Shown: positions 1 through 44,409 of the stretch, piece after piece | Position numbering within the stretch: the stretch's first letter is position 1 | Layout of the letters: every line of letters begins with the position of its first letter | Origin: a bacterium | Lineage (GTDB): Bacteria; Sysuimicrobiota; Sysuimicrobiia; Sysuimicrobiales; Humicultoraceae | Direction of reading: 5' to 3' | DNA: 64,000 bases | Assembly: GCA_031082185.1 (NCBI GenBank) | Contig: JAVHLI010000001.1 | Span: 313,980-377,979, forward strand | Made by a program: the position numbers and the translations under genes | Notes under the pieces: model-generated | Databases searched by the model: none | What the model saw: the letters and a program-made list of their open reading frames with translations, nothing else | Told to the model about the DNA's origin: nothing

Positions 1-242
1 GGGCCTCGCACCTGCACGTTCCCCACGCTGGCGCTGCCCTTCCCGGGCACGACCAGGCCGGCCAGGACCTTGAGCAGAGTGGTCTTGCCGCAGCCGCTGG
101 GCCCAGCCACCACCACGAACTCGCCCCGCCGCACCGTGAGACTCACGTCCTCGACGGCGCGGACCGCCTGGCCCTCGTGTTGGTAGTCCAGCGTGACGTT
201 ATCGAGGCGGACGAAGGTCTCTTCAGCGGTGAGGTTGGTCAA
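1..242 (-). CDS. ABC transporter ATP-binding protein, NitT/TauT (SsuB/TauB-like) family; N-terminal part only, gene runs off window start
   Basis: Minus-strand translation from TTG(242): [63 protein letters not shown]..., Walker [10 protein letters not shown]; start overlaps stop of upstream LLM gene (TTGA). Absent from ORF track because truncated. Confidence 0.6.
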
Positions 243-1252
243 AACCGTCCCTCTGCGAAGGCATCAATCATGGCGCGCACGTCGTCTCCAAGGGGATACA
301 GGATGGGGCAGGTGCACCCGGCGGCCACGTACTCACGGACCTTGGCGCGGCACTCCGCTGGGGTGCCCGAGGCGGTTATCATCTGGACCACTTCGTCGGG
401 CACCAGGCGCATTGCCCTGTGGATCTCCTCCGGCCCGGCCGGCCAGGTAAGCTCTTTGCCGATCTCGTCCAGCAGCGCCGGGTTCACCCCGCTGGCCTTC
501 ATGATGTGGGGCTGCTGGCCGAGGTACTGCGTCACCAGTTCGCGGGCGCGGTCCAGTGCCAAAGAGCGATCCTCGTCCAGGGAGCAGACCACGAGCTGGG
601 GCCGGTCGAGGTCCTCGACCCTCCGCCCGGCCCTGGCGGCGCCGGCGGCAAGCGCTTCCATCGCCGTCTTGTTGTAGCCGGGGCTGACCAGGTAGTTCAG
701 CAGCACGCCGTCGGCGATCTCACCGGTCAGCTCCATCATCTTCATGCCCGTCGCGCCGATGTAGATGGGCACCTTCTTGGGCGAACGGTCGCCGTGCACG
801 ATGTCGAGCTCGATGTCGGTGACGTGCACGAACTCGCCGTGGTAGGTCACCCTCTCCATGGCCAGCAGCCGCCGGGTGACCTCGACGACCTCGCGCATCG
901 CCTGCAGCGGCTTGCGCCGGTTCACCCCGACCTTTGTGGCCAGCGGCTCCCACCAAGCGCCGACCCCGAGCATTACCCGGCCCGGCGCCAGGTCGTCGAG
1001 GGTGGAGAACGTTGCCGCCAGCAGTCCCACGTTGCGCGTCCAGAGGCTGACGACCCCCGAACCCACCTTGATCCGGTCGGTGACCGCCGCGAACGCGGCC
1101 AGCGGGATCGTGGCCTCGCGGACCAGGCGGCTCTCCGCCTGCCACACCGCCTCGAACCCGCGCTCCTCGGCGTACCGCACGTACTCCATTCCTTGGCGAA
1201 TGGGATGCTTGTCCTGCAGGTACAGGGCTACGCGTCCGCCGCCTGGTGTCAT
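239..1252 (-). CDS. Luciferase-like monooxygenase (LLM) family, F420-dependent-type oxidoreductase
   Basis: ORF 239..1603 trimmed to internal ATG ([17 protein letters not shown]...); LLM fold motifs ([20 protein letters not shown]); ATGA overlap with upstream amidohydrolase stop. Confidence 0.75.
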
Positions 1253-2589
1253 GGCCTCGGTCCTCCTGCGGGTTCGAACTCGTGGGGTCCTATCTCCTCG
1301 AGGCGGCGCCACAGCCGCTCTGTCTGCGTTCTTGCCTGCGCGGCAAGCCGGTCCTGGTCTACCTTTGTCAGCCGCCGATCCGCCACCACGATCTCGCCGC
1401 CCACAACAACGTCGCGCACGTGTCGCGCCGAGAGGCCGAAGATCCAGTGGCCGGCCAGGTTGCCCTCGTGCAGCGGCGTTGGGGTAGGGTAGTCCAGCAC
1501 CGTGATGTCTGCCGGCGCGCCGGGCTCGATTCGGCCCAGCGCGGGTTCGCCCAGGATCCTCCCGGCCATGCGCGCGCCTGCGGCCATGCGCTGGAGCGGC
1601 CATGCGAAGTCGAGGAAGAGATCGTCCTCCCGGGCCCGCCAGTACGCGGCCGCCGATTCGGCGAACATGTCGGCGCCGATGCCGTCGGTGCCGAGCACCA
1701 CGCGCTCTCCGAGGCGGCCCACCCGCGCGCGGCCGACCGAGTTGTTCATATTGGACCGCGCGTTGTGCGCCACGGTCGCTCCGGAGCGGAGAATCGCGGC
1801 GATCTCGCCATCGTCCACGTGCACGCAGTGGACCAGGATTGCCCGATCATCCAGCGCGCCGGCATCGGCCAGCCGGTGCACCACGCGCCGGCCAAAGCGG
1901 GCCAGGGCATCGCGCTGGTCTGCTCCGTCTTCGGCCACGTGGACGTGAACGCCTGCGCTTGCCTGGCGCGCAAGCTCGACACAGGCGGCCAGCGTGTCCG
2001 CCGAGAGAGTGAACGACGCGTGCGCGCCCACCAGGCCCATTGCCAGGGGCCGCTGCGCGGCCAGGAACCGCCGGTTCTCCTCGACCCCGGCGCGCGCACG
2101 TTCGGGCCCATCGCGATCGGTGACCTCGTAGCAGAGAACCGAACGCAGGCCGAGTTCGCCGAGCGCGTCCGCAATGACATCGAGCGAGCCCGCGATGGCG
2201 TAGGGCGAGGCGTGGTGATCAACGACGGTGGTTGTGCCGGAAAGCAGCGCGCTCATCGCGCCGGCCAGTGCCGACGCGCGGACCGTCTCCTCGTCCAGGA
2301 CCCGGTCCAGCCGCCACCAGACGCGCCGGAGGATCTGCGTGAAGTTGGCCGGCGGCTCCAGGCCGTAGGGCATGCCTCGCGCCAGCGCAGAGTATAGATG
2401 CGTGTGCGCGCAGACGTTACCAGGGATGATCAGGCAGCCCGAGCAGTCGCGGCGCGGAAGACCCTCCGGAGCCCGGCCGACCGCGGTCACCCGGCCTCCC
2501 TCGATCAGCACGTCGGCCTGGAGAAGCGCTGGCGCGTCCAGCGACGCAAGCACGGTACCGCCGGTCAGGGCGAGACCCATCTCAGGCAT
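1249..2589 (-). CDS. Amidohydrolase-superfamily protein, SsnA/chlorohydrolase-like (cyclic amidine/aminohydrolase)
   Basis: HTHLYS metal-binding motif, amidohydrolase_1 architecture, ~446 aa; start chosen at ATG with GAGG 6 nt upstream (GTG at 2601 also possible); lies beside XdhD-like gene as ssnA does in E. coli. Confidence 0.75.
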
Positions 2590-2597
2590 TCTCAACC

Positions 2598-5249
2598 TCA
2601 CACACCCTCAACGCGGCCGGGCCGCGCCCTTTTGGGCACGAACCCTCGGGCCGCGGGAGAATCCTTCATGGGCAGCCGGGTCCGGCGAATGCCGTCATAG
2701 GACCACAGCGCGCCGGCGATCGCCGCGGCCGTGGGGATGTTGCCGATCTCTCCAACTCCCTTGGCCCCGTATGGTCCCTCGGGCTGGAACTCCTCGACGA
2801 AGATGCACTCAACCGCAGGCATCCCCACCGCAGGCACGATGCCCAGCGACTTGAGGGTGTCGGTCACCGGCACCCCTCCCTCCAGCACCAGTTCCTCGGA
2901 GAGCGCGTACCCCATCCCCATGTGGACGGACCCCTCTATCTGGCCTTCCAGCAGCGTCGGATTCATAACCCGGCCGACGTCGTGGGCCGCGATCACCCTG
3001 GCCACCCGCCCGTCATCGTCGAGGATTGCTACCTGGGTGGCCCAGCCGTACGCGAAGTGCGTCACCTGATCCTCCACGCCCGGGGTCGGCTTGGAGGTCC
3101 AGTCAATCACGGTCTCGCCGTAGAACTCCTGCCCGGCCAGCGACTCCAGCCGAGCATCCCCGCTCCGTCCACCCCCGAGCCGACCGCCCCCGAGATGGCC
3201 ACCCCCGAGCGCGGCCCGCAGGCGCTTCGCCGCCTCGATGACCGCCAGCCCGCCGAGGACCGTGGCGCGGGAAGCCGTGGTCTCACCGGTGCCCAACTCG
3301 CGCACCGTGTCAACCGCGACCGCCACCCGGTCGGGTGTCAGGCCGAGTTCCTCGCAGGCCACCTGTTGAAGGATGGTATGAACTCCCTGTCCCATCTCGG
3401 TCCAGGAGTGAAACACCGTGACCGTGCCGCCCTCCTCGACGCGCAGCACCGCCCTGCCGTACTCGGTCAGGCCGTTGCCGATCCCGGTGTTCTTTACGGC
3501 GCAGGCGATGCCGGCGTAGCGCGCCGAGCGAAAGGCGTCGCGCACCGCGAGCAGCGTCTTCTTGAGGCCGACGCCCGGCCCCAGCTTCTGGCCGGTGGCG
3601 AAGACGTCGCCGACGTCCAATGCGTTACGCCATCGGATCTCCCAGCGGTCTATGCCCACCCGCAGGGCCAGTGTGTCCATCATCGCTTCCATCGCGAAGC
3701 TGACTTGGTTGACCCCGAACCCGCGCATGGCGCCGGCGGGCGGGTTGTTGGTGAAGACCGCCCTTGACTCGACGTCCACGTTCGGCACGCGGTATGGGCC
3801 GCAGGCGTGGCCCGCCGCCCGCTCCAGGACTTTGTCCCCGACGCTGGCGTAGGCGCCGGTGTCCCCCACGATCCGCGCGCGCACCGCGAGCAGGCGTCCC
3901 GCCTCGTCGCAGCCGACCGTGTACTCCATGGTCATGGGATGGCGCTTGGGATGGAACCGGATGCTCTCCCGCCGTGACAGCGCCAGCATCACCGGCCGAC
4001 CGGTCATCACGGCCAGCAGTGAGGCGTGCGCCTGGACGCTCAGATCCTCCTTGCCGCCGAAGCCGCCGCCGCTGGAAACCAGCGTGACCCGGACCCTTTC
4101 CTCAGGGAGCGCGAGCACCGATGCCACCTGCCGGCGGTCCTCCCAGATGCCCTGCCCCTGCGAGAAGAAGTGCACGCCGCCGTCGCCGGAAGGCACTGCC
4201 AGGCAGGCCTCCGGCTCGAGAAACGCGTGCTCGATGGATTGGGTGCGGAAAGTCTCCCCGGCTACGAACGCAGCGCCTGCGAGCGCCGCGCCCGCGTCGC
4301 CGCGCTGCACCTTCGTCACGGAGAGCAGGTTGCCCATTTCGTGGACCACCGGGGCGCCCTCGGCCAGCGCCTCGAACGGATCGGTGACCGGGGGCAGTAC
4401 CTCGTACTCCACCTCGATGAGGGCCGCGGCCGCGCGGGCGGCGGCCCTGGACTCGGCCGCGACGACCGCCAGGATGTCCCCGACGTAGTTTGTGACCTCG
4501 CCCTCGGCCACGAACTGCCGCCAGTCGCTGAAGATCAGGCCCACCCGGCGCTCTCCAGGCACGTCGCGCCAGGTGGCCACCGCGACGACGCCGGGATGGG
4601 CGCATGCCCTCGATACGTCAATGCGCAATACCTTTGCCCGAGGGTGATCGGACCACCGCACGGCGCCGTGGAGCATGCCGGGTACGCGCATGTCGGCCAC
4701 GAACGGCTTCTGGCCCAGCACCAGATCTCGACCCTGGTACCGCGCGGTGCGCGATCCCACCTTGCCGCTGCGATCGGGCGCAGGAACCGGTTCCCCGCGC
4801 CGCGCCCCGGCGGCGTAGCTGATGGCGTCAATGATCTTGATGTAGCCGGTGCACCGGCAGAGGTTGCCGGCCAGGGCCCTGGCGATCTCCTCGCGAGAGG
4901 GATCGGGATTACGGTCCAGCAGGGATTCGGCCTTCATCACGATGCCCGGTGTACAGAATCCGCACTGGGACGCGCCGGAGGCGACGAAGCAGTCCGCCCA
5001 CTGCGCGCGGTGCTCCTCGGGCAGTCCTTCAAGCGTGGTGACCTGCCGTCCGGCGGCCCTCTCCGCCGGCTGGGCGCACGATACCACCGCCCTGCCATCC
5101 AGGAGCACCGTGCACGCGCCGCAGGAGCCCTCCGGTGCGCACCCGTCCTTCATCGAGGTCAGGCCGCACTGCTCGCGGAGCACCTCCAGCAGGCTCGCGC
5201 CCTTGCGGGCTTCCAGCGAGACCTGCCGTCCGTTGAGCGTGAACTCCAC
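2598..5249 (-). CDS. Xanthine-dehydrogenase-family molybdoenzyme, fused N-terminal [2Fe-2S] ferredoxin domain + molybdopterin-binding catalytic domain (XdhD/selenium-dependent Mo-hydroxylase-like)
   Basis: N-terminus MEFTLNGRQV...CGACTV...QCGFCTPG (two 2Fe-2S Cys clusters) followed by aldehyde-oxidase/XDH a/b hammerhead and MoCo-binding domains; 883 aa; GTG start. Confidence 0.85.
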   Translation of the reverse strand: MEFTLNGRQVSLEARKGASLLEVLREQCGLTSMKDGCAPEGSCGACTVLLDGRAVVSCAQPAERAAGRQVTTLEGLPEEHRAQWADCFVASGASQCGFCTPGIVMKAESLLDRNPDPSREEIARALAGNLCRCTGYIKIIDAISYAAGARRGEPVPAPDRSGKVGSRTARYQGRDLVLGQKPFVADMRVPGMLHGAVRWSDHPRAKVLRIDVSRACAHPGVVAVATWRDVPGERRVGLIFSDWRQFVAEGEVTNYVGDILAVVAAESRAAARAAAALIEVEYEVLPPVTDPFEALAEGAPVVHEMGNLLSVTKVQRGDAGAALAGAAFVAGETFRTQSIEHAFLEPEACLAVPSGDGGVHFFSQGQGIWEDRRQVASVLALPEERVRVTLVSSGGGFGGKEDLSVQAHASLLAVMTGRPVMLALSRRESIRFHPKRHPMTMEYTVGCDEAGRLLAVRARIVGDTGAYASVGDKVLERAAGHACGPYRVPNVDVESRAVFTNNPPAGAMRGFGVNQVSFAMEAMMDTLALRVGIDRWEIRWRNALDVGDVFATGQKLGPGVGLKKTLLAVRDAFRSARYAGIACAVKNTGIGNGLTEYGRAVLRVEEGGTVTVFHSWTEMGQGVHTILQQVACEELGLTPDRVAVAVDTVRELGTGETTASRATVLGGLAVIEAAKRLRAALGGGHLGGGRLGGGRSGDARLESLAGQEFYGETVIDWTSKPTPGVEDQVTHFAYGWATQVAILDDDGRVARVIAAHDVGRVMNPTLLEGQIEGSVHMGMGYALSEELVLEGGVPVTDTLKSLGIVPAVGMPAVECIFVEEFQPEGPYGAKGVGEIGNIPTAAAIAGALWSYDGIRRTRLPMKDSPAARGFVPKRARPGRVEGV

Positions 5250-5254
5250 TGCGA

Positions 5255-6205
5255 TCAGCCCAGGGTGATGCGCGTGCCGGTTTCCCCGCCCAGCGCCCGC
5301 TCCAGGTTCTCAGGGTTGGTGATCAACGCCTCGCCCCCGCCCCGCTCCAGGTAGCCGATGACCGCCTCCATCTTGGGAGCCATGCTGCCCTTCGCAAAGT
5401 GCACGCCCTCGGCCAGGTACTCCTTGGCCTGGGACAGGGTCATCCGCCGGATCGTCTGCTGGTTGGGCTTGCCGAAGTTGAGGGCTACCTGTTCCACCGA
5501 GGTGGTGATTACGAATAGGTCGGCGCCTATGACCGTGGCCAGCAGTGACGATGCCAGGTCCTTGTCAATGACCGCGGCCACCCCACGCAGGTTGCCTTCC
5601 GCGTCGGCTACGACCGGGATTCCGCCTCCGCCCACGGTGATGACCACGAACCCCTCGCCGATCAGGCGCTTGACCGCCTCCTCTTCGACGATGCGGATCG
5701 GGACCGGCGAGGCCACGACGCGCCGCCAGCCCCTTCCCGCGTCCTCAACCACGCTCCAGCCCTCCTCGGCTTGTCGGCGCCGGGCCTTCTCCGCGTCCAT
5801 GAACGACCCGATCGGCTTGGTCGGTTTCTGGAAGGCAGGATCGTCCGCGCTCACCTCGACCTGCGTTACCACGGTCACGGCGTCCTTCTTGATGCCGAGC
5901 CGGCGGAACTCATTGTACAGGTTCTGCTGGAGCGCATAGCCGATGGCGCCCTGGCTGTCGGCGCCGCAAACGTCGAGCGGCACCTCGTGCAGCTCGTGGG
6001 CGGCCAGCTCCGACCGGCGCAGGATGAAGCCGACCTGAGGTCCGTTGCCGTGCCCGATTGTTACGTCCCAGCCGTCCCGGATCATGCCGGCGATGCGCCG
6101 GCAGGTCTCCCTGGCGGCCTCGTACTGGTCCTGCACCGTCTGGCGTTTTGAATCCTTGATCAGCGAGTTCCCGCCGATCGCCACTACCGCGGTACGCCCG
6201 GCCAT
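5255..6205 (-). CDS. arcC: Carbamate kinase
   Basis: AVVAIGGNSL...GHGNGPQVG carbamate-kinase signature, 316 aa; GGAGG 7 nt upstream of ATG. Confidence 0.9.
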   Translation of the reverse strand: MAGRTAVVAIGGNSLIKDSKRQTVQDQYEAARETCRRIAGMIRDGWDVTIGHGNGPQVGFILRRSELAAHELHEVPLDVCGADSQGAIGYALQQNLYNEFRRLGIKKDAVTVVTQVEVSADDPAFQKPTKPIGSFMDAEKARRRQAEEGWSVVEDAGRGWRRVVASPVPIRIVEEEAVKRLIGEGFVVITVGGGGIPVVADAEGNLRGVAAVIDKDLASSLLATVIGADLFVITTSVEQVALNFGKPNQQTIRRMTLSQAKEYLAEGVHFAKGSMAPKMEAVIGYLERGGGEALITNPENLERALGGETGTRITLG

Positions 6206-6272
6206 GCGCTTCCCTCCCGCAGCCCTCTTCCCGCCGCTCTCTTCCTGGGCGCGTCGCCGTATCCGGTGCGCG

Positions 6273-7250
6273 TCAGCTCATCGTCAGGGCCATCACGGCC
6301 TTCTGTCCGTGCAGCCGGTTTTCGGCCTCGTCGTAGACCACCGATTGAGGCCCGTCAATCACCGCGTCGGTGACCTCGATGTTGCGGTCGGCGGGCAGGG
6401 GGTGCATGTAGATCGCGTCATCCCCGGCCATTGCCATGCGCCGCTCATCGGTGATCCAGTCCTTGTACTTGGCGGAGTGCTTCGCGCCTTCCTCATCGCT
6501 CTTAACGGTCAGCAGGGCGCCCCAGCTCTTCGCGTAGACGACGTCGGTGCCGCGAATGCCGGCCTCGAAGTCGTCCATGATCTCAAACCCAACCTTGGCG
6601 CGGCGTGCGTTCTCCTGCGCCTGTCCCACGATCTCGGGCATCAGCTGGAATCCCGGCGGGTGGACCAGCCGGACGTTCATGCCGAAGCGGGGCATCAGGA
6701 GGATCAGACTCTGCGGCACGCTGATCGGCTTCTGGTAGCTGGCGGCGTAGGCCCAGCTCACGGTGATGGTCTTCCCGCGCGGATCGCCCTTCTTCTCGAT
6801 AATGGTCAGCAGGTCCGCGAGGGCCTGGAACGGGTGGTAGATGTCGCACTGCATGTTCAGCACGGGCACACGGCTGGCCGCGGCGACCTCGCGGATGTAC
6901 TTGTTGCCCCCCATCCAGTCCACGTGCCTGATGGCTAGGCCGTCGTTGTAGCGTCCCAGGATCTCGCCGATCTCCTTGGCGGTGTCGCCGTGGGCGATCT
7001 GGGTGGTGCGGCTCTCGATGAACTGCGCGTGGCCGCCCAACTGCGCCATGCCGGCCTCGAACGAGGCGCGGGTGCGCGTGCTGGAGAAGAAGAACAGCAT
7101 CGCCAGCACCTTGTCGCGCAGGATGGCGTGCGGCTGGCTGAGGGCTCGGCTGCGCTTGAGATCCAAGGCCACGTCCAGCGCGGTATCGATCTCCTCCTTG
7201 GTCCACTCCTGCAGGGTGATGAGGTCACGTCCGCGGAGATATGTCTGCAT
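6273..7250 (-). CDS. Ornithine-carbamoyltransferase-like transcarbamylase (OTCase/YgeW-like, probably catabolic)
   Basis: STRTR carbamoyl-phosphate motif, HPLP motif, 325 aa; beside carbamate kinase. Confidence 0.75.
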   Translation of the reverse strand: MQTYLRGRDLITLQEWTKEEIDTALDVALDLKRSRALSQPHAILRDKVLAMLFFFSSTRTRASFEAGMAQLGGHAQFIESRTTQIAHGDTAKEIGEILGRYNDGLAIRHVDWMGGNKYIREVAAASRVPVLNMQCDIYHPFQALADLLTIIEKKGDPRGKTITVSWAYAASYQKPISVPQSLILLMPRFGMNVRLVHPPGFQLMPEIVGQAQENARRAKVGFEIMDDFEAGIRGTDVVYAKSWGALLTVKSDEEGAKHSAKYKDWITDERRMAMAGDDAIYMHPLPADRNIEVTDAVIDGPQSVVYDEAENRLHGQKAVMALTMS

Positions 7251-7261
7251 CGGGACTCCTC

Positions 7262-8215
7262 CTATTCCACTGCGCCCAGCACGAGGGCCAGCAGCGCCAT
7301 GCGAACGACCACGCCGTTGAACGCCTCGGTCCAGTACCGAGCGTGGCGGGTGATGTCAACGTCGGGGGTAAGCTCGTCCATGCGCGGCAGGGAGTGCAGC
7401 ACGATCGCGCTGCTCTTGCCCCGCTCCCGCAGCAACTGGCGGGTGATCTTGTAGGCCGCCGGGGTGAGCCCCACGTCGCCGGAGCGCTCGTCACGGGACT
7501 TCGTGTAGTCGGGCTGGACCACGGGCTCCATGTAGATCACGTCTGCCTCGCCGATGACTTCCTCGGCCGTGGCTACCTCACGGTACCGGACGCTGAGCGC
7601 GTCGAGCTCCGCCTTGAACTCGGGAAGAAGGGACATCTCGGGCGGCGAGACCACGAACGCCTCCATGTCGAACTGCGACATCGCGTAGAGGATTGAGTGC
7701 ATCGTGCGCATCCGCATGTCGCCCACGCACAGCACCTTGAGGCCGTCCAGCGTGCCCAGCTCGCGCTGGATCGTGTATAGGTCTATCAGTACCTGGGTGG
7801 GGTGCTCCCCCCAGCCGTCGCCGCAGTTGATGATCGGCACCGAGGCCCAGCGGGCCGCCTCGTGCGGCGCGCCCTGCTGGAAATGGCGCATGGCGATGAC
7901 GTCGCCGTAGTACTCGAGCATGTGCACGGTGTCCTTGATAGACTCCTGGTAGAAGTCGCCGGCACGGGTCATCTTGGCGTCCGAGAACCCCAGCACGCTG
8001 CCTCCCAGCCGGATCATGGCCGCCTCCGTGGCCAGGCGCGTGCGGGTGCTGGGCTGGTAGAACGCGGTGACCAGGGTCTTGTGCTTCAGCAGGTCGGTGT
8101 TGCGCCGGTCGCGCGCGTAGGGCTTCAGGTCGTCCGCCACCTGGAAGACACGGAAAAACTCGTTGCGCTCGAAATCCTTGAGCGACAGGATGTCCCTACC
8201 GAGAAAGCTTCTCAT
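7262..8215 (-). CDS. Aspartate-carbamoyltransferase-like transcarbamylase (ATCase/OTCase superfamily)
   Basis: STRTR and HPTQ (ATCase-type) motifs, HSLPR motif, 317 aa; no pyrI nearby. Confidence 0.7.
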   Translation of the reverse strand: MRSFLGRDILSLKDFERNEFFRVFQVADDLKPYARDRRNTDLLKHKTLVTAFYQPSTRTRLATEAAMIRLGGSVLGFSDAKMTRAGDFYQESIKDTVHMLEYYGDVIAMRHFQQGAPHEAARWASVPIINCGDGWGEHPTQVLIDLYTIQRELGTLDGLKVLCVGDMRMRTMHSILYAMSQFDMEAFVVSPPEMSLLPEFKAELDALSVRYREVATAEEVIGEADVIYMEPVVQPDYTKSRDERSGDVGLTPAAYKITRQLLRERGKSSAIVLHSLPRMDELTPDVDITRHARYWTEAFNGVVVRMALLALVLGAVE

Positions 8216-8261
8216 TAACCGATCCCTCCCTTTATGCCGGCCGTTCGGCCCTCGTATTGTC

Positions 8262-9626
8262 TCATCGTTTCACGCCGGTGAACAACACCGCCACGCGCTC
8301 ACCCGACCCGATGCCGCCCTCGCGATGAAGGCGCAGCAGCCCGGCCAGCCCGGCGGAGCCGGTGTGATCCACACCGATCCCCGTGGCTGCCTGCGCGAGC
8401 GCGTTGGCTTCCTTCAGTGTCTCCTCAGATACCAGGACCGGAGTGCCCCCGGTGGTTGCCATCCCCCGGAGAACCGCCAGCCAGTCGTAAGTCTCGTCAT
8501 CGAGGATGCCGTGTGCGATGCTCTTCGGCTCCTCCTCCCACGGCCACATGAACTGCGAACGGTGGGTGGCGGCGTAGCGCAATGCCTCCTCGATCCTCTC
8601 GCGGCCCTCCGGCCCGCCCTCAGGAGACGGCCCGATCCGCTCCATGAGCCGGCCGTAGGCCCGCTCCAAAGGATGGCCGCCCAGGGTCTGGACCGCGTGG
8701 ATCCGCGGCATCCGCTCCAGCGCGCCCAGGCGCACCGCGTCCTGGAGCGCCTGGATCACGGAGCTGGCCAGCGCACCGCCGCCTGTCTGGATGAACAGGC
8801 GGTCCAGCGTACTGCCGGCGGACGCCAGATCCGAGGCGATCTCGTATCCCAGGGTCTTGCCGCCGTCTATCGTCAGCCCATTGTCAGGCCCCTGGCAGGT
8901 GAACGGCAGGGCGCCCTCGCGCACCGCCTGCTGCAGCCGGTGGTAGGTAGGATCGCCGGGGGAGCCTTCCTCCCTGGGGCAGATAGTCAGGTGCGCGCCC
9001 AGCGCCTCCAATCGTGATACCACCACCGGGTCGGCGCTCGTGGGCACGAACACCTGGAGCCGCCGCCCGCCGGCCCGGGCCACCACTGCGGCGGCCAGTG
9101 CCGCGTTGCCGCAACTCGCGATGGCCAAATCGGGCGCGCCCGCGCCGGCCTGTTCGGTCCCGGCCCGAGCGGTCAGGCCGGCCCGCTCGACTACCTCCAG
9201 GTGGATCAGCAGCCCCATCAGGTGGCGCGCCTTGTGCGACCCGGAAACATTGCCGGTTTCGTTCTTCACCCAGACGCCGCCCCCGGCGAATCCAAGACGG
9301 TCGCCTAGCGGACCGCTGCGGAAGAACGGGGTGGCCTCAAACCCGCCCCCGTCCACCTGCGCCACCGCGAGGTCGAGCCGCTCGACCAGGCCGACATAGT
9401 CGGCGTCGGTGAGGCCGTGCGCCAGGGCCAGGTGGTAAGAGTGTGAGAGCTCGCGATATCGGACGAACGGGTTGGCCGGACCGTAGGCGGGAAACCGAAG
9501 GCCCGCCGGGTCCAGCACCGCGGTCATCACGTGGTCGGTATCGTCGCCCCGGCCTGCGTTGGGACACCTGAAGGGGTAGGGATCGCCGGGCGGTGCCGCG
9601 GCGCCACACCCGGTACAGGCAATCAT
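8262..9626 (-). CDS. PLP-dependent enzyme, tryptophan-synthase-beta-like (fold type II) with Cys-rich N-terminal extension
   Basis: [14 protein letters not shown] Schiff-base lysine region; N-terminus MIACTGCG...RCPNAG (CxxC...CP); 454 aa; ATGA overlap with upstream PLP gene. Confidence 0.6.
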
Positions 9627-11116
9627 GCGGCCGCTCCCGTCCTTCCGTTGAACTCCTCGATCAGATGGTCCCAGGCTGGGATGATCGCCCGCATCTCCTG
9701 CCAGAACCGCTGATCCCGCCTGGCCTCGAACTCCTCGATCGAGATCCCCTGCTGTTCCACCCAGGTGAAGTAGCCCAGGTTGAAGATGCGGTCCCGGTCC
9801 ACGCGGGTCAACTCCAGCAGGTGGTCGTTGGTGACGCTGCCCAGGTGTCCGGCGAACGTCGCGCCGGCGGCGACCGCATCGAATCCGCCTGGGAAGTACT
9901 TCCGGAGGGATTTCTCCCGCTCGGTGGCGTACATCGCCGCGCCGTCGGTGGCGACGGTGACGACGACATCTTGTGGCCCCATCCCGAAGTGCTTCGCGGT
10001 CTTGATCGCCCCGAGCACGTTGCAGATGCTGGAGAGCCCCAGCGCCGGCAGCAGTTCAATCACCGCGGGCGGTACACCCTGCCGGCTCACGAGATACTCG
10101 CGGCCGGCAGGAGTGTTGAACAACACGTCGAGCCGATCGGTGCTCTGGTCCGAGACCGCCGCCACCAAGTCGGTGTTCGTCACGTTGTGGATCAGAGGGA
10201 TGTGCTTGTCACCTATGCCCTGGATGTTGTGCTCGCCGAAACCGTTGTACAGCATGGTTGGGCACTCAAGGGCCTCCATGGCCACAATCTTGGCGCCGTA
10301 CTGTTCCTTGAGGTAGTCACCGGCGCCCAGGGTGCCGGCCGAGCCGGAGGCGGAGACAAAGGCGCGCATCCGCAGGCCGGGCTCGGAGGCAGCCAGCGAC
10401 TCGAACAGATTCCCCAGCGCCTTTCCCGTGACCAGGTAATGCACCAGATGGTTTCCGAACTCGCAGAACTGGTTGAAGATGATGTTGGTCGGATCGCGCT
10501 CCAACTCCGCGCACTTGTCGTAGATCTCTTTGACGTTGCTCTCTGTGCCCGGCGTCCGGATGATGTCCGCGGGGTCGGCTATCCACCGCTCCAACCATGC
10601 GAACCGCTCCCGGCTCATCCCCTGCGGCAGCACGGCGATTCCCCGGCAGCCCATGATGCGCGAGATGGCCACGCCGCCGCGGGCATAGTTGCCGGTGGAC
10701 GGCCAGACAGCCCGATGGGCCGTCGGGTCGAACTGCCCGGTGATTATCCGCGGGGCTATGCACCCGTAGGCGGCCAGCACCTTGTGGGCGCGGATCATCG
10801 GGAAGCGGTCTCCGAGTGCGACCACGATGCGCGCTTCCACCCCGGTGAGCGCCTTGGGCAGCACCACGTGCTCGGGCGACGCCACCCGGTCGGTGCGGGT
10901 TGCACCGTTGAACCAGTGCACCCTAAAGAGGTTCAGCGGGTGTGGGGCATCCGGGTCCACGCCGGAGAGGGCCTCCCGGATCCGCGGCGGAATCCGGGCC
11001 GGGTCCGTCAGTTCTGCGAAGGTGGGCAGCACGATCCCGGCATCGCGGAAACGTCCCACCGCCCGCTCATAAACAGTCTTATCTACGAGCTCACGTTCGA
11101 GCCCAAGTCGCCTCAT
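9623..11116 (-). CDS. PLP-dependent enzyme, TrpB-like/fold type II family (function unknown)
   Basis: [10 protein letters not shown] lysine motif and glycine-rich PLP-phosphate loop ([12 protein letters not shown]); 497 aa; GAGGGG upstream of ATG. Confidence 0.55.
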
Positions 11117-11164
11117 CTGTCTACCCCTCTTGCGCTAGGTTGGCCTATCCCTGCAGCGCCTATT

Positions 11165-12211
11165 CTACCTCACGGGAAGCATACGCTCCGCCTTGGGCGG
11201 GAGGAACTTGTCGGTGAAGACCTGCTGCCACCTGGGCTTGACCGGGAGCGCGAACGCTTCCGTCAGCAGATCAACGGACCGGCTCATGCGCTCGCCCTTG
11301 ATTGCGCCGAAGCCGTGGGATTGCACATCTTTGGTCAGGATGTTGTGCCGGAGCGCGAGCTGCAGGCGCTCAAGCTCTACGTCCTCGCGCAGCAGCGGGT
11401 CGCGCCGCTTGACGATGGCGACGGCCTCTGAGGGGTTGTTGATCGTGTCCTTCAACGCGCGCACAAACGCCCTGAGGAACCCGCGGACCGCCTCGGGCTC
11501 CTTCTCGAGCAGGGTCGCCGGCGCCATGATGGCGTTGCCGTAGAGGGGAAGGCCCTGGTCGTTGTACATGAACGCCACGATCTCGGCCGGATCTACCCGC
11601 GCGGCCTTCAGGTTGAGGAACGAGGTGAAGTAGAAGCCGGAGATGGCGTTGACGTCGCCCCTGACCAGCATCGGCTCACGTAGCGGCACGTCCATGGTGA
11701 TCCACTCGACCGAGGCCGGGTGCATGCCCACAGCCCGGGCGAAGAGCGGCCAGAGGCGGCGCGGCGCATCGCCGGCCGGCGCGCCCAGCTTCTTCCCGTA
11801 GAGCTCGATCGGCCGCGTGATGCCCTCGCGCCTCAGCGTGATGATCGAGAAGGGAGGCTCGTTCAACAGGACCGCTATGGCCACGAGCTCCCGGCCTGGG
11901 TTCCTGGCGTTGAACTCGATCATTGAGTTGATGTCGGCGTAGCCCAGGTTGTAGGCGCCGCCGGCGATCTTGGTCACCGCGTCGGCCGAGCCGAAGCCGC
12001 GGTCAACCGTGATGTTCAGGCCTTCCGCCGCATAGTAGCCCTTCTCCAGGGCGACCAGGAAGGGCGCCTGCGGTCCCTGTACGATGAAGTCCAGGGTGAA
12101 CTTCCACGTCGTCTGCTTACCTGGTCTGGCGGGCGGCTGGGCAAGGCCAAATCCGGCGGCCAGCACGACAACTGCCAGCACCGCCGCAAACACTGCCAAG
12201 AGGCTTCTCAC
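11165..12211 (-). CDS. ABC transporter substrate-binding protein, NMT1/THI5-like (NitT/TauT, SsuA-type); paralog 1
   Basis: Signal peptide MRSLLAVFAAVLAVVVLAAG; NMT1/THI5-like core; ~75% identical to neighbouring paralog. Confidence 0.8.
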   Translation of the reverse strand: MRSLLAVFAAVLAVVVLAAGFGLAQPPARPGKQTTWKFTLDFIVQGPQAPFLVALEKGYYAAEGLNITVDRGFGSADAVTKIAGGAYNLGYADINSMIEFNARNPGRELVAIAVLLNEPPFSIITLRREGITRPIELYGKKLGAPAGDAPRRLWPLFARAVGMHPASVEWITMDVPLREPMLVRGDVNAISGFYFTSFLNLKAARVDPAEIVAFMYNDQGLPLYGNAIMAPATLLEKEPEAVRGFLRAFVRALKDTINNPSEAVAIVKRRDPLLREDVELERLQLALRHNILTKDVQSHGFGAIKGERMSRSVDLLTEAFALPVKPRWQQVFTDKFLPPKAERMLPVR

Positions 12212-12341
12212 TTCTGGTCCCTCCTTGAGATAGGACAGAGATTCTCCGGATGCTAGAGTATTATGGTTGGATTCCGGTGTAACCTAAAAGGTTCGCGATT
12301 GGCGAAGAAACCCCCTTCTCCGCACCCTACTCCCGGCTAGG

Positions 12342-13403
12342 CTACCTTGCGGGCAGCATGCGCTCAGACTTGGGAGGCAGGAACTTGTCCGAGAAGACGC
12401 GCTGCCAGGCGGGCTTGGTCGGGAGACTGAACGCCTCGGCCAGCAGGTCAATGGACCGGCTCAGGCGCTCGCCCTTGACGCCGCCGAAGCCGCCCGATCT
12501 GACGTCCTTGGTCAGGACGACGTGCTGGAGGGCCAGCACCAGGCGTTCCCGTTCCACGTCCTCGCTAATCATCGGGTCGCGGCGCTTGAGGGAGCTGATG
12601 GCCTCGGAGGGGTTTGCGACCGCATCCTTCCAGGCGCGCGTTATCGCCCTGACGAAACCTCGCAGAGCTTCGGGCTCGTCCTTCAGGAGGGAAGGCGGCG
12701 CGATGATGGCGTTCCCGTAGAGCGGCAGGCCGTACTCGTTGTATGGGAAGATCACGATGTCCGCGGGATCCACCCTGGCAGTCTTGAGCGTGATGAAGGC
12801 GTTGAACGAGAAGGCGGCAACCGCGCTGACCTCACCCCGCAACAGCATCGGCTCCCGCAGCGGCGGGGACATCGTCACCCACTCCACGGAGGCCGGGTGC
12901 ATGCCGACCGCTTTGGCGAACAGCGGCCAGAGCACGCGCGGAGCAGAGCCGGCCGGCGCACCCAGCTTCTTCCCGTAGAGGTCGATCGGCCGGGTGATGC
13001 CCTCCTTCCGCAGCGTAACGATGCTGGAAGGCAACGCGTCGAAGGGCACGGCAACGGCGATCAGGTCCCTGCCGGGATTCCTGGCGTTGAACTCGATCAT
13101 GGTGTTGATGTCGGCGAATCCCAGGTTGTAGGCGCCGGCCGCGACCTTGGACACGGCGTCGGCAGAGCCGAACCCGCGGTCAATGGTGAGGGAGATACCT
13201 TCCGCGGCGTAGTAGCCCTTCTCTAGCGCCAGCAGGAAGGGCGCGTACGACCCGTCAAAGACCCAGTCAATCGTGAACTTCCACTGCACCGTTCGGCCGG
13301 GCTTGGCCGGCGTCTGGGCGAGTCCAGATCCGGTGGCGGCTGCGGTGATGATCAGCGCGACGACGATCATCGCGGCGACGGTCAGCGAGAGCAGGCGTTT
13401 CAT
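12342..13403 (-). CDS. ABC transporter substrate-binding protein, NMT1/THI5-like (NitT/TauT); paralog 2
   Basis: ORF 12342..13502 trimmed to ATG (MKRLLSLTVAAMIVV..., signal peptide) with AGGAGG 7 nt upstream. Confidence 0.8.
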   Translation of the reverse strand: MKRLLSLTVAAMIVVALIITAAATGSGLAQTPAKPGRTVQWKFTIDWVFDGSYAPFLLALEKGYYAAEGISLTIDRGFGSADAVSKVAAGAYNLGFADINTMIEFNARNPGRDLIAVAVPFDALPSSIVTLRKEGITRPIDLYGKKLGAPAGSAPRVLWPLFAKAVGMHPASVEWVTMSPPLREPMLLRGEVSAVAAFSFNAFITLKTARVDPADIVIFPYNEYGLPLYGNAIIAPPSLLKDEPEALRGFVRAITRAWKDAVANPSEAISSLKRRDPMISEDVERERLVLALQHVVLTKDVRSGGFGGVKGERLSRSIDLLAEAFSLPTKPAWQRVFSDKFLPPKSERMLPAR

Positions 13404-13592
13404 GGGTGGTCCTCCTCTTGGGATTCTTGTTGCGAATGATTCGAGGCCGCCCTGTCGCTCCCTTTCCCGGGGCGGTAGGCAGAGGAAGGCGCTCGGCTGC
13501 ACCCTTTTGGCACTCTTGGGCGTCGCCTGGGGTACAATCGTGACGTTACCGTTCTTCTGAGGATCGCGCTCTTGGGCAGCGGGGAGGACAGC

Positions 13593-14039
13593 ATGAGCAG
13601 GCAGGTATCTGCTGGCAGAAAGACCGCCTACTACCTGGGCGTCGTTGTCATGATCATCGGCGGCCTCATGTTCGCATCCGTGTTTGTCACGCTTGCGATG
13701 CTTGCCGGGAGAGACTCAGATCCAGAAACGGTGATCGGGTCCTTCCTGATTCGCGCCTTCGGGGGACTGGCGCTCGTGGCCGTTGGTGGCGCAATCAGGG
13801 CAGTTGGAGCCCGTGGCCTGGCCGGTTCTGGCGTGGTTCTGGATCCGGAACGGGCACGGCAGGAACTCGAACCCTACGCTCGAATGGCAGGCGGCATGGT
13901 CAAAGATGCATTGGATGAGGCCCAGATCAAGGCCGGAACAGGCGGGCCGCAGAGAATCGTTATGGTCAGATGTCCCTCCTGCCGAAAGCTGAACGAAGAG
14001 GACTCTAAGTTCTGCCAAGAATGCGGGAAGGGCCTCTGA
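13593..14039 (+). CDS. Hypothetical membrane protein with C-terminal zinc ribbon
   Basis: Two predicted TM helices then CPSC...CQEC; ATG at 13593 preceded by GGAGGA. Confidence 0.5.
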   Translation: MSRQVSAGRKTAYYLGVVVMIIGGLMFASVFVTLAMLAGRDSDPETVIGSFLIRAFGGLALVAVGGAIRAVGARGLAGSGVVLDPERARQELEPYARMAGGMVKDALDEAQIKAGTGGPQRIVMVRCPSCRKLNEEDSKFCQECGKGL

Positions 14040-14521
14040 TCAACTCCTTTGTGCAGGGGGTTGCTTCGTCTCGGCTGGGAGCCTGGTTCCTTTCTCGCAC
14101 CCTGCACCATCTCGACCGCCTCGTTCTCAGGGTGACCGGGGGCCGCACGACCATGACCGGCCTCTTGACAGGTCTGCCGGTCGTCGTCTTGACAGCCACC
14201 GGCGCCAGGAGCGGGCTGCCGCGCACGCTTCCTCTGCTGTGCGTTCGCGACGAGCTTACCCCGAATGCTTTCGCCCTCGTCGCCTCGAACTGGGGAGGGC
14301 GACACAACCCGGCCTGGTACTCTAACCTGAAGGCGAACCCCCGCGCGGTGGTTTCCGTGGGCGGTCAGGTTGGGGAGTACGTCGCACGCGAAGCAAGCGG
14401 AGGGGAGTACGAGAGGCTCTGGCGGCTGGCAGAGGACACCTATGCGGGCTTCCGGCTGTACAAGGCGCGCGCTTGTGGGAGGCGCATCCCGATAGTGATC
14501 ATGACGGTGAGCACCGCGTGA
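14021..14521 (+). CDS. Deazaflavin(F420)-dependent nitroreductase-family oxidoreductase (Ddn-like, PNPOx fold)
   Basis: TGARSGLPRT...NWGG..NPAWYSNLKANP signature of F420H2-dependent reductases; start uncertain (ATG 14021 overlaps previous gene by 19 nt). Confidence 0.7.
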   Translation: MREGPLINSFVQGVASSRLGAWFLSRTLHHLDRLVLRVTGGRTTMTGLLTGLPVVVLTATGARSGLPRTLPLLCVRDELTPNAFALVASNWGGRHNPAWYSNLKANPRAVVSVGGQVGEYVAREASGGEYERLWRLAEDTYAGFRLYKARACGRRIPIVIMTVSTA

Positions 14522-24385: not shown

Positions 24386-24490
24386 TGCTCTTATCAAGAG
24401 TGGGTGAGGGACGGGCCCGATGACCCCCGGCAACCTGCCAGTCAGGTAAGGTGCCAACCCCCGCGGGAACTAGTTCCGGCGGATAAGAGG
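24386..24490 (+). promoter_or_regulatory. SAM-I (S-box) riboswitch
   Basis: CTCTTATCAAGAGTGGGTGAGGGACGGGCCCGATGACCCCCGGCAACC...GGTGCCAACCCCCGCGGGAAC...GGATAAGAGG matches the S-box consensus. Confidence 0.85.
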
Positions 24491-24495
24491 GATGA

Positions 24496-25863
<1,368 letters not shown>

Positions 25864-25925
25864 GCGCGTGCCATGCGCCCTTCTGCTCTACCGCCTAGTG
25901 GAAAGAGGGCGAGATGAGGTGGGCA

Positions 25926-26852
25926 ATGCCAGTACGAATCTCTGACGACCTGCCGGCCAAGGACGTGCTGATGAGCGAGAACATCTTCGTGATGGAAGAG
26001 CGACGGGCCCTGCACCAAGATATCCGACCCCTCGAGATCGCCGTGCTCAACCTGATGCCGACAAAGATCGCCACCGAAACCCAGCTTCTCCGCCTGCTGG
26101 GAAACACGCCGCTGCAGATCAACATCACGCTCTTCTATCCCGACTCTTACCAGCCCAAGAACACTCCTGCAGAGCACCTGCTGGCCTTCTATCAGCCTTT
26201 CGCCCAGATACGTGAGCGCAAGTTTGACGGGTTGGTGATCACCGGTGCGCCCGTCGAGCATCTGCCGTTCGAGGAGGTTGACTACTGGCAGGAGTTGCAG
26301 GAGATCATGGACTGGTCACTCAGCCATGTATTTGCCGCGCTGCACATCTGCTGGGGAGCGCAGGCGGCACTGTACTATCACTACGGGATTCCCAAGCATC
26401 CCCTTCCCGTGAAGCAGTTTGGGGTCTTCGAACACTATGTGACCCGCCAGAACATCAAGCTGCTGCGTGGCTTTGACGACACATTCTACGCGCCGCATTC
26501 TCGCCATACCGAGGTGGAGAGCGAGGCCATTGCGCGGGTGTCAGATCTGGAGATCCTGTCTCAGTCGAGGGGCTCCGGGGTCTATCTAATCATCTCACGC
26601 GACGGCCATCAGGTATTCGTTCTAGGCCATCCGGAGTACGACTCGCTAACCCTACACGGGGAATACCAGCGCGATCTTCGGCGAGGGCTGCCGATTACAA
26701 TCCCCAGGAACTACTACCAGGATGACGCCCCCGACCGGCCGCCGGTTGTTCGCTGGCGGGGGCACGCCAATCTGTTGTATTCGAATTGGTTGAACTACTA
26801 CGTGTACCAGGAAACCCCATACGACCTACGCCGTATTCCGCACGGTTCGTAG
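25926..26852 (+). CDS. metA: Homoserine O-acyltransferase, MetA family
   Basis: [15 protein letters not shown]...[14 protein letters not shown]...[10 protein letters not shown]; GAGGTG upstream. Confidence 0.85.
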
Positions 26853-31827: not shown

Positions 31828-31976
31828 AATAGCAGGCCTTCAGGGCAGGGTGAGCCGGCGCGTAAGTGCCGGCAATTCCCGATCGGCGGTACAGCCCGCG
31901 AGCCCGGCTGAACAAGCAGCCAGGCAGATCCGGTGAGACTCCGGGGCCGACGGTATAGTCCGGATGGAAGAAGGTC
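31828..31976 (+). promoter_or_regulatory. FMN riboswitch (RFN element)
   Basis: CAGGGCAGGGTGAGCCGGCG...AATTCCCGATCGGCGGTACAGCCCGCGAGCC...CAGATCCGGTGAGACTCCGGGGCCGACGGTATAGTCCGGATGGAAGAAGG matches RFN consensus. Confidence 0.85.
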
Positions 31977-32108
31977 AGAAGGGGAACCCGGGATTCGGTA
32001 GCCGGGACCGACGGCCCGCTATGTGTGAGCCGCGGCCTCCAGCCCGAACCCCCGTTCCACTACACCTGCGCCCGGAGGTCTCTGGACCCCGGGCGTGAGC
32101 GTTTGTCC

Positions 32109-33230
32109 ATGGAAACGCACCACGACAACAACAGGATGATGCAGCAGGCCCTCCGGCTCGCGCGGCGGGCGGCGGGTCGCACCAGTCCGAACCCGCTGGT
32201 CGGAGCGGTCATCGCATCCGGCGGCGTGGTGGTCGGCCGCGGCCATCATGCCAGGGCCGGGACCGATCACGCCGAGATCGTTGCCCTTCGCAGGGCGGGC
32301 AACCGCGCCCGCGGCGCCACCCTCTACGTGAACCTCGAACCGTGCGCTCACACCGGGCGCACCGGTCCCTGCACCGAGGCGCTGATTGATGCTGGCATCC
32401 GCCGCGTCGTGGCCGCCATGCGCGATCCCGATCCCCGGGTGGACGGCAGGGGTATCGCGCGGCTGCGTGAAGCCGGCATCGAGGTGGAAGTCGGCCTGCT
32501 CGAGGACCAGGCCCAGCGGCTGAACGAGCCCTACGTCAAGCACCGCCGGACCGGAATGCCTTTCGTAACGCTCAAGTGGGCGATGAGTCTGGACGGCAAG
32601 ATCGGCGCTGATCGCAGGAGCGCGACCGCGCTCACCGGCGAAGCGGCGCGGCAGTACGCGCACTCCCTGCGCAACACCCACGACGCGGTGCTGGTGGGAG
32701 TGCAGACCGTACTGGCCGACGATCCCCAACTGACGTGCAGGCTGAGCGGCGGCCGCAATCCGCTGCGCGTGGTCCTGGACTCGCGACTGCGCACCCCACT
32801 GGAGGCGCGCGTGGTCGCGGGCATGGCCGAAGCGCCGACCCTGATTGCCACGACGGCAGCGGCACCCCCTGCTCAGGTCGAGGCGATGAGGCGGGCCGGC
32901 GTGGAGGTGCTCGTTTTAGATCAGGCGCCGCAGGGAGTGGACCTGCGCGCTCTCATGGAGGAGTTGGGGCGTCGGGGGGTGCTCAGCGTCCTGGTTGAGG
33001 GCGGCGGAACCGTGAACGCCTCCGCGCTTGCCGCCGGCGTCGTTGACAAGGTGATCGCACTCGTGGCGCCTCGACTGATCGGTGGATCCCTGGCAGCTAC
33101 CCCGGTGGACGGCCCTGGACTCGCGGGCGTCTCCGGGGCCGTACGGCTGTCGGAGGTGCGCACTCGGAGGCTGGGAGAGGACATATCAATCGAAGGGAAG
33201 GTGGAAGCTCGATGTTCACAGGCCTGGTAG
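32109..33230 (+). CDS. ribD: Bifunctional diaminohydroxyphosphoribosylaminopyrimidine deaminase / 5-amino-6-(5-phosphoribosylamino)uracil reductase
   Basis: CMP/dCMP deaminase zinc motif (HAEIVAL...LEPCAHTGRTGPC) plus RibD C-terminal reductase domain. Confidence 0.85.
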   Translation: METHHDNNRMMQQALRLARRAAGRTSPNPLVGAVIASGGVVVGRGHHARAGTDHAEIVALRRAGNRARGATLYVNLEPCAHTGRTGPCTEALIDAGIRRVVAAMRDPDPRVDGRGIARLREAGIEVEVGLLEDQAQRLNEPYVKHRRTGMPFVTLKWAMSLDGKIGADRRSATALTGEAARQYAHSLRNTHDAVLVGVQTVLADDPQLTCRLSGGRNPLRVVLDSRLRTPLEARVVAGMAEAPTLIATTAAAPPAQVEAMRRAGVEVLVLDQAPQGVDLRALMEELGRRGVLSVLVEGGGTVNASALAAGVVDKVIALVAPRLIGGSLAATPVDGPGLAGVSGAVRLSEVRTRRLGEDISIEGKVEARCSQAW

Positions 33231-42900: not shown

Positions 42901-43133
42901 GGAATCCTCCTGACGGACTTGGGGCGGGGGCTCACTCCATGTGGCTTCTTCGCCTGGTGTCGCGGTACCTTCCGTCCGGGAAGTCGGCCCGGGCCGCGGT
43001 CCCCCTCTGTAACCGGCAGGGATAGGATCCTCGTACCAAACGCAGGCACTCTTGCAAATAGTGACGCCATACGCAAGAACAGACTCGTGCGGTGGGGTTA
43101 CTCCCCCCCGCTGAACTCTGATACCATAACCTC

Positions 43134-44400: not shown

Positions 44401-44409
<9 letters not shown>
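44384..44409 (+). repeat. Perfect 13-bp tandem duplication AGCGTGAACAAGC x2 at fabF stop / ATPase start
   Basis: Read directly from sequence; the second copy supplies the GTG start of the ATPase. Confidence 0.7.

Follow-up and report, generated by a model that had tools for sequence, protein, structure and literature searches.

What reactions are catalyzed by two different transcarbamylases whose genes stand in tandem beside a carbamate kinase gene? The question is raised by a 64,000-nucleotide stretch of a metagenome-assembled Sysuimicrobiota genome (assembly GCA_031082185.1, contig JAVHLI010000001.1, positions 313,980 to 377,979 of the forward strand; the whole stretch is called the window). 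A preliminary description of the window, made from the letters alone, had pointed out the tandem pair, and the two open reading frames were found exactly where it had placed them, with the kinase gene beginning 67 nt downstream of the second one. The two genes are as follows.

7262-8215, minus strand: TC-A, a pseudo-ATCase (ATCase, aspartate transcarbamylase) of 317 aa, complete open reading frame; NCBI name, aspartate carbamoyltransferase (PyrB)

6273-7250, minus strand: TC-B, a compact YgeW-like (knotted-type) transcarbamylase of 325 aa, complete open reading frame; NCBI name, ornithine carbamoyltransferase (ArgF)

We propose, with a probability of about 60% and on the basis of sequence comparisons, that both enzymes phosphorolytically cleave the ureido groups of 2,3-diureidopropionate-type intermediates of urate breakdown, such that TC-B would perform the step known from YgeW and TC-A would replace YgeY.

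Both proteins contain the PF02729 and PF00185 domains (Pfam; E-values 1e-24 to 1e-45), and they share 29% identity. The stop codon of TC-A is separated from the start codon of TC-B by 11 nt, which include a GGAGGAG ribosome-binding site; a median of 11 nt was likewise obtained for this gap across 53 related loci. TC-A carries STRTR at residues 56-60, HPTQ at 138-141 and HSLP at 274-277, and TC-B carries STRTR at residues 57-61, HPFQ at 139-142 and HPLP at 283-286. STRTR is thus kept in both proteins, as had been noticed. The HPTQ and HPLP strings by which the preliminary description had told the two copies apart are likewise present; however, they were drawn from different motifs, HPxQ and HxLP. 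The HxLP motif is usually HPLP in ATCase, HCLP in ornithine transcarbamylase (OTCase) and H[AVC]LP in YgeW (Table 1, PMC4016543). These strings are not what distinguishes TC-A from TC-B.

The residues of TC-A were compared in an alignment of 84 family sequences with the Escherichia coli, Pyrococcus abyssi and human ATCases (E. coli numbering). The carbamoyl-phosphate site, formed by S52, T53, R54, T55, R105, H134, Q137 and L267, was invariant in the 84 sequences, as was Arg167. The RxQxER motif of the 240s loop was lost through R229P (84/84), Q231V (83/84) and R234D (84/84). The replacements K84Y, T228E, E50Q and P266S, the last of which turns HxLP into HSLP, were also uniform across the family. 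Furthermore, the 80s loop read TRAGDFYQE, with an invariant Arg at position 80 (Ser80 in ATCase) and an invariant Tyr at 84, and the 240s loop was about six residues longer than in ATCase. These residues were the same whether or not TC-B was present at the locus. In ATCase, E50 and R234 take part in domain closure. R229 and Q231 bind the beta-carboxylate of aspartate, and R167 together with K84 of the adjacent chain holds the alpha-carboxylate (PMC4581275). The retention of R167 with the loss of R229 and Q231 suggests that the reacting nitrogen is alpha to a carboxylate. We infer that TC-A acts on such a nitrogen in a compound whose C3 bears a neutral or cationic group, not a carboxylate. Compared with PyrB (E. 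coli; P. abyssi 1ML4), TC-A has the fold, the length, the carbamoyl-phosphate site and R167 in common, but it lacks K84, R229, Q231, E50 and R234, its 240s loop is longer, and no PyrI accompanies it. As judged from its residues, TC-A is not an aspartate carbamoyltransferase but a pseudo-ATCase.

The TC-A family was tight, with 77-99% identity in the best 80 genome loci and at least 81% in the best 120 database matches. Clustering at 50% reduced it to two full-length representatives. The next relatives, at most 51% identical, were diverse and without RxQ, and true RxQxER ATCases appeared only at about 36-44% identity. In a neighbor-joining tree (Kimura distances, 100 bootstraps), TC-A fell in a cluster of exclusively non-RxQ sequences nested in the ATCase branch, and three TC-A family sequences grouped together in 100/100 bootstraps. 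A position of TC-A outside the ATCase clade is not supported, as it appeared in only 21/100 bootstraps and the RxQ ATCases were paraphyletic around the pseudo-ATCases. The TC-A family is a separate tight clade among the pseudo-ATCases. The non-RxQ proteins of the ATCase branch (P0128-P0258) had in common the 80s loop TRAGD-[FY]Y.E, Q50 and a one-residue deletion before R167, and most of them are likely annotated as ATCase. The nearest outside relative, P0128 (50% identical), was discarded as a functional hint; its gene context is unrelated, the neighbors being regulators, an HMGL-like enzyme and an aminotransferase, with nothing on purine breakdown.

Pseudo-ATCases have been described previously (PMC4016543). 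Like TC-A, they are members of the ATCase branch in which STRT and HPTQ are retained, HxLP is altered and RxQ is missing; a neighboring carbamate kinase gene, a setting of purine catabolism and an ATCase annotation are further features in common with TC-A. The ureidoglycine transcarbamylase (UGTCase) of Rubrobacter xylanophilus, one of these pseudo-ATCases, phosphorolyzed allantoate in vitro, and a pseudo-ATCase paralogue of Nocardioides JS614 adjoining ygeW, xdhABC and hyuA was noted in 2013 (PMC4016543). The remark in the preliminary description that an ATCase-like enzyme acting catabolically would be unusual was therefore overstated. TC-A differs from the UGTCase group in its motifs, a combination of HSLP with P-V-V (positions 229-231) and YMEPVVQ[PA]D that departs from that group; moreover, the UGTCase context contains uricase and allantoinase, whereas that of TC-A is reductive, with SsnA and a selenium-dependent xanthine dehydrogenase (Se-XDH). 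The residue of the UGTCase H(T/S)LP motif is predicted to touch the second ureido group (PMC4581275), and the HSLP of TC-A was counted as support by precedent on this account.

TC-B scored below every NCBIfam cutoff: 257.6 bits with the best OTCase model (cutoff 306), 242.7 bits with acetylornithine transcarbamylase (AOTCase; cutoff 288) and 193.8 bits with YgeW (cutoff 453). Its identity to the P. furiosus OTCase, E. coli YgeW (35%) and the Xanthomonas AOTCase was alike, at 35-38%. At the residue level, TC-B has Q98, H101, Q160, C161, D162, S200, Y201, K203, K270, D334 and E344 of YgeW. The putative pocket residues of the YgeW type (Q98, Q160, S200, K203, K270 and D334/E344) were kept in all or nearly all of 60 TC-B family sequences, and AOTCase and OTCase depart from YgeW and TC-B at, e.g., Q160, S200, Y201 and D334. 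TC-B lacks the OTCase motif DxxxSMG (D231 is Lys, and SMG is ALL in the alignment) and has HPLP, not HCLP. It has the lysine of the knotted group (YAKSWG), the YgeW-like proline-rich loop SYQKPISVPQ and NMQCDIxHPxQ, features likewise kept in all or nearly all of the 60 sequences. As for AOTCase features, K252 is present, E144 is Gln, and W77 has no counterpart in the 80s loop, which is short and devoid of Trp. In place of the HDLP and (T/S)RWQTTG motifs of diaminopropionate transcarbamylase, TC-B has HPLP and YAKSWG, and TC-A has HSLP.

With E. coli YgeW (3Q98), TC-B shares the 80s loop TQIAHGD, NxQCDIxHPxQ, the SY.KP.SVPQ loop, Y[AP]KSW, D334, E344 and a gene position beside carbamate kinase. 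Unlike TC-B, YgeW has 396 aa (TC-B, 325), extra N- and C-terminal helices, an insertion in the 240s loop and HCLP. A subgroup of TC-B from Gaiellales-type clusters, about 50% identical to TC-B, was more YgeW-like (D69, D124 and HCLP). From these comparisons, TC-B is proposed to be the equivalent of YgeW. The aspartate- and ornithine-binding residues of the 80s and 240s loops, to which the preliminary description had drawn attention, thus mark neither protein as anabolic, TC-A lacking R229, Q231 and K84 and TC-B lacking DxxxSMG.

The pair lies in an operon on the minus strand (about 239-13502), in which the genes all point the same way and either overlap or lie a short distance apart. The other members are listed below.

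239-1252, minus strand: F420-type luciferase-like (LLM) oxidoreductase of 337 aa; exact match to MDQ7839712.1

1249-2601, minus strand: SsnA-like amidohydrolase; 433 bits with PRK07203, below the cutoff of 444; full-length identity to E. coli SsnA, 37%

2598-5249, minus strand: Se-XDH-type molybdenum hydroxylase with a fused 2Fe-2S domain; 995.6 bits with TIGR03311 (cutoff 830)

5255-6205, minus strand: carbamate kinase (YqeA/ArcC type); 373 bits with TIGR00746 (cutoff 358); 51% identical to E. coli YqeA

8262-9626, minus strand: PALP454, a fold-type II pyridoxal phosphate (PLP) enzyme of 454 aa, remotely threonine-synthase-like, with an N-terminal Cys-rich segment

9623-11116, minus strand: PALP497, a fold-type II PLP enzyme of 497 aa, remotely cysteine-synthase-like, overlapping PALP454 by 4 nt

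11165-12211, minus strand: NMT1/SsuA-type ABC substrate-binding protein, syntenic in L002, L004, L007 and L008 (L numbers denote our genome loci); putatively serving uptake of the purine substrate

12342-13502, minus strand: second NMT1/SsuA-type substrate-binding protein, from a Pfam/NCBIfam match and locus comparison

Carbamate kinase makes ATP from carbamoyl phosphate and ADP. The two PLP enzymes gave only remote matches to known enzymes (CysK, 1e-14; ThrC, 1e-10) and no significant similarity to YgeX. The true start of the SsnA-like protein is probably the ATG at 2589 or 2580.

In the reductive urate pathway, urate is converted to 2,8-dioxopurine by XdhD/XdhAC, to its dihydro form by YgfK and to ureidomethyl-hydantoin by SsnA. 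HyuA then forms 2,3-diureidopropionate, from which YgeW releases carbamoyl phosphate (yielding ATP via YqeA) and a mono-ureido compound; YgeY hydrolyzes the latter to 2,3-diaminopropionate, and YgeX converts this to pyruvate. The clusters are those of E. coli and Clostridium, and the pathway was established in 2025, only in gut Proteobacteria and Firmicutes (PMC12507026; bioRxiv 10.1101/2025.04.24.650524). The intermediate 2,3-diureidopropionate bears two ureido groups (PMC12507026, PMC12990295), which fits well with the suggestion in the preliminary description of two distinct carbamoylated groups. The two 2025 papers differ on which ureido group YgeW removes, and the field has named the regiochemistry of YgeW an open question (PMC12990295). 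In Chloroflexota SsnA clusters, an F420-type LLM enzyme takes the place of YgfK (Li et al. 2025, PMC12507026); the survey in the same paper treats any PF00185 protein as YgeW. Neither of the 2025 papers mentions the tandem pair or an ATCase-like member, and a full-text literature search gave no other description. The pathway, the LLM replacement and the pseudo-ATCases are already known, and the tandem two-transcarbamylase arrangement would be a new variation on the pathway.

The operon was assigned to this pathway because the Se-XDH, the SsnA-like protein, the YqeA-like kinase and the F420-type LLM reductase occur together; by its gene content, it probably represents the form that the reductive (2,8-dioxopurine) urate pathway of the 2025 papers takes in Chloroflexota and Actinomycetota. 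The preliminary description had not recognized a urate-degradation operon around the pair. By analogy, the Se-XDH is proposed to carry out the conversion of urate to 2,8-dioxopurine, and the LLM oxidoreductase is proposed to take the place of YgfK as dioxopurine reductase. The operon resembles the E. coli and Clostridium clusters in combining an Se-XDH-type molybdenum hydroxylase, an SsnA-like protein, a YgeW-type transcarbamylase and carbamate kinase. In contrast, two transcarbamylases are found here where those clusters have YgeW and the hydrolase YgeY, two unrelated PLP enzymes where they have YgeX, an ABC transporter with NMT1-type binding proteins where they have the permease UacT, and no counterpart of their HyuA. 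None of HyuA, YgeY, YgeX and YgfK/UacX was found in the 64-kb window at E < 1e-4; the LLM reductase, TC-A and the two PLP enzymes stand where HyuA, YgeY, YgeX and YgfK would. No uricase or allantoinase was found when the operon and about 26 further large open reading frames of the window were compared with the Pfam and NCBIfam models, and the other frames scanned were housekeeping genes. The catabolic direction proposed in the preliminary description is supported by this context of carbamate kinase, XDH and SsnA.

Conservation of the arrangement was analyzed in a genome scan with one genome per species, in which at least 586 loci encoded a TC-A relative. The carriers among the best 80 were mostly metagenome-assembled genomes of Actinomycetota and Chloroflexota, together with Sysuimicrobiota (Ca. 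Fervidifonticultor), Phycisphaerae and others. When 83 loci were queried by tblastn with the proteins of the window and those of the E. coli pathway, TC-B was found in 64 loci, PALP497 in 63, Se-XDH in 60, the SsnA-like protein in 59, carbamate kinase in 49 and the LLM reductase in 34. HyuA was found in about 17 loci, a YgeY-like protein in two to three, YgeX in one and a PyrI homologue in none. Where the sequence reached far enough downstream (77 loci), TC-B followed immediately on TC-A in 50, and PALP454 lay directly upstream of TC-A in 43 of 78; the PLP pair comprised the genes most tightly linked to TC-A. Throughout the 83 loci, the context of TC-A was purine-catabolic. At L082 (8000-16000), the neighborhood of carbamate kinase and TC-A includes a true YgeW that shares 59% identity with the E. 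coli protein, indicating that TC-A complements a YgeW-type enzyme and does not duplicate it. In Gaiellales-type loci, three genes separate TC-A from the divergent (50%-identical) TC-B. At some loci, TC-A also adjoins another amidohydrolase gene, whose product has about 30% identity to SsnA.

From the observed gene identities, residue patterns and conserved synteny, we infer the substrates, the ureido group attacked by each enzyme, the order of the steps and the ATP yield as follows. TC-B would perform the YgeW step, most likely on the 3-ureido group, and TC-A would phosphorolyze the 2-ureido (alpha-N) group, releasing carbamoyl phosphate and taking over what in E. coli is the hydrolytic step of YgeY. 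The residue logic given above places TC-A on the 2-ureido group; the 3-ureido group would fall to TC-B by complementarity and by its membership in a branch whose enzymes carbamoylate nitrogens of side chains. Both carbamoyl phosphates would be turned into ATP by the single carbamate kinase, thereby yielding two ATP per urate, not one. Pyruvate would arise when the PLP pair deaminates the freed 2,3-diaminopropionate or, possibly, albizziin; the pair probably replaces YgeX, as a free alpha-amino group is a prerequisite for PLP chemistry. PALP497 and PALP454 may be a new diaminopropionate or albizziin lyase. As for the order, an initial attack of TC-A on the diureido compound is somewhat favored by the HSLP motif, by analogy to UGTCase, and by the loci without TC-B; Glu228 would also suit a C3 ammonium, which would place TC-A second. 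The near-absence of YgeY also argues for a role of TC-A on this intermediate, since in about 80 of the 83 loci one ureido group would be left without an enzyme unless TC-A handled it.

Several observations weigh against this proposal. A YgeY-like M20 peptidase stands beside both transcarbamylases at L008, where YgeY-like, HyuA-like, PALP497, PALP454, TC-A, TC-B and carbamate kinase genes form one run (4434-12918), and at L011 (6320-10734), where a gene 55% identical to YgeY is divergent from TC-A, TC-B and carbamate kinase; TC-A is thus not a strict replacement of YgeY. HyuA, which is required to form 2,3-diureidopropionate, is missing from the window and from most loci, so the real substrates could differ. 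At L001, L024, L027 and L055, the order is PALP497-PALP454-TC-A-carbamate kinase, with no TC-B within reach; a decayed TC-B at L001 was considered and rejected, no remnant being present in the 800 bp that separate TC-A from the kinase gene. The disagreement of the 2025 papers on the ureido group taken by YgeW makes the regiochemistry of TC-B, drawn by analogy, uncertain. Lastly, an R (D) configuration has been proposed for the published intermediates, and ATCases act on L-aspartate.

It is unlikely, though worth weighing against these points, that only TC-B acts on 2,3-diureidopropionate and that TC-A acts on another carbamoylated compound, with a downstream route unlike that of E. coli. The substrate of TC-A could then be the exocyclic ureido group of ureidomethyl-hydantoin or 5-ureido-dihydrouracil, or an N-carbamoyl amino acid made or used by the PLP enzymes; a PLP-dependent beta-elimination of urea from albizziin would be an example of such a route. 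The linkage of TC-A, which is tightest to the PLP pair (PALP454 directly upstream) and not to TC-B, would agree with this, as would the missing HyuA, the YgeY at L008 and L011 and the loci devoid of TC-B. However, a retained R167 with a lost beta-carboxylate pocket fits an open-chain alpha-ureido acid, and with YgeY so scarce, TC-A would again be needed for one of the two ureido groups.

Tight coupling of the two genes (the 11-nt gap here and in the median of the 53 loci) would also be expected if TC-A and TC-B formed one heteromeric transcarbamylase, as the preliminary description had considered, in the shape of a mixed trimer acting on a single substrate. The active sites of this family indeed lie between trimer subunits and use the 80s loop of the neighboring chain (PMC4581275). 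Nevertheless, such a heteromer is very improbable: the two proteins are only 29% identical, TC-A occurs with carbamate kinase but without TC-B at L001, L024, L027 and L055, three genes stand between TC-A and its TC-B in Gaiellales-type loci, TC-A is found beside a true YgeW at L082, and its residues do not vary with the presence of TC-B. Moreover, the review of the transcarbamylase family describes no heterotrimeric transcarbamylase.

Far-fetched by comparison with the shared role in diureidopropionate breakdown is the possibility that the public names are right, TC-A being PyrB and TC-B being ArgF, which stand beside a catabolic cluster by chance. NCBI gives these names, TC-A exceeds the cutoff of the ATCase model TIGR00670 (252.9 bits; cutoff 236.95), it is 39% identical to E. 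coli PyrB, and its best solved-structure matches are true ATCases. However, TC-A remains below the cutoff of PRK00856 (222.8 bits; cutoff 263), none of the 84 family members retains R229, Q231 or K84, and even the nearest neighbors of this tight family lack RxQ. TC-B has neither DxxxSMG nor HCLP and scores below every OTCase cutoff. In addition, the pair accompanies XDH, SsnA and carbamate kinase across phyla, and none of the 83 loci contains pyrI. The PyrB and ArgF annotations of TC-A and TC-B are thus, on sequence grounds, probably wrong. Hardly conceivable, finally, is an anabolic pair making ureido amino acids (e.g., albizziin) for a natural product, as the viomycin and zwittermicin diaminopropionate transcarbamylases do, for although transcarbamylase equilibria favor carbamoylation and diaminopropionate-carbamoylating enzymes exist, TC-B is devoid of HDLP and (T/S)RWQTTG, and no biosynthetic genes accompany the carbamate kinase, XDH and SsnA of its context.

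If TC-A and TC-B do share the two ureido groups, TC-A may have a new activity, the alpha-ureido phosphorolysis of 2,3-diureidopropionate or 3-amino-2-ureidopropionate, and the uncultured Actinomycetota, Chloroflexota and Sysuimicrobiota-like species having it would number at least several hundred; TC-A and TC-B combined would give two ATP per urate, the PLP pair would be a new diaminopropionate/albizziin lyase, and YgeW would be assigned to the 3-ureido group. We put this fuller proposal forward tentatively, at somewhat less than an even chance. Its last part would follow from TC-A being complementary to YgeW-type enzymes, which would argue that YgeW attacks the 3-ureido group, and the comparative data would thereby bear on the question of which group YgeW cleaves. 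Environmental lineages would save both ureido groups as carbamoyl phosphate, doubling the substrate-level ATP yield of anaerobic urate breakdown, and a widespread protein family now labeled PyrB would gain a function. The labels "aspartate carbamoyltransferase" and "ornithine carbamoyltransferase" in hundreds of genomes would mislead reconstructions of pyrimidine and arginine biosynthesis. These points are relevant to researchers of purine catabolism and of transcarbamylases.

The operon probably continues beyond position 1 of the window, where a partial open reading frame (3-263, minus strand) is probably the start of an ABC ATPase gene. In the 99%-identical contig of L004 (13606-15858), genes for an ABC ATPase, an ABC permease and an isochorismatase-family hydrolase extend the operon past the LLM gene. 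The isochorismatase family includes ureido and amide hydrolases. An M20 fragment at the end of L004 was considered as YgeY and rejected, as it is not YgeY-like (E = 0.2). Upstream of the operon, no purine, xanthine or NMT1-type riboswitch was found: at the Rfam gathering threshold, the whole window gave only an FMN and a SAM riboswitch in other places, and a permissive scan of 11000-14500 gave no match. A promoter and terminator scan of 1-14500 was uninformative, giving no promoter-like sites and fewer terminator-like sites than shuffled sequence.

Elsewhere in the window, a SAM riboswitch (24388-24489, plus strand) precedes genes for a Cys/Met-metabolism PLP enzyme and homoserine O-acyltransferase (24529-26852), and an FMN riboswitch (31832-31979, plus strand) precedes ribD/ribBA (32025-35049); both are ordinary-looking. 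A 543-aa Amidohydro_3 protein (35613-37244, plus strand) belongs to the same Pfam family as UacY of C. difficile, the hydrolase that replaces YgeW there. It is probably unrelated to the cluster, being 27 kb away between the riboflavin genes and superoxide dismutase. Two neighboring thiolase-like genes on the minus strand lie beside a beta-ketoacyl synthase gene on the plus strand (40553-44378), followed by a heavy-metal P-type ATPase gene (44401-46551).

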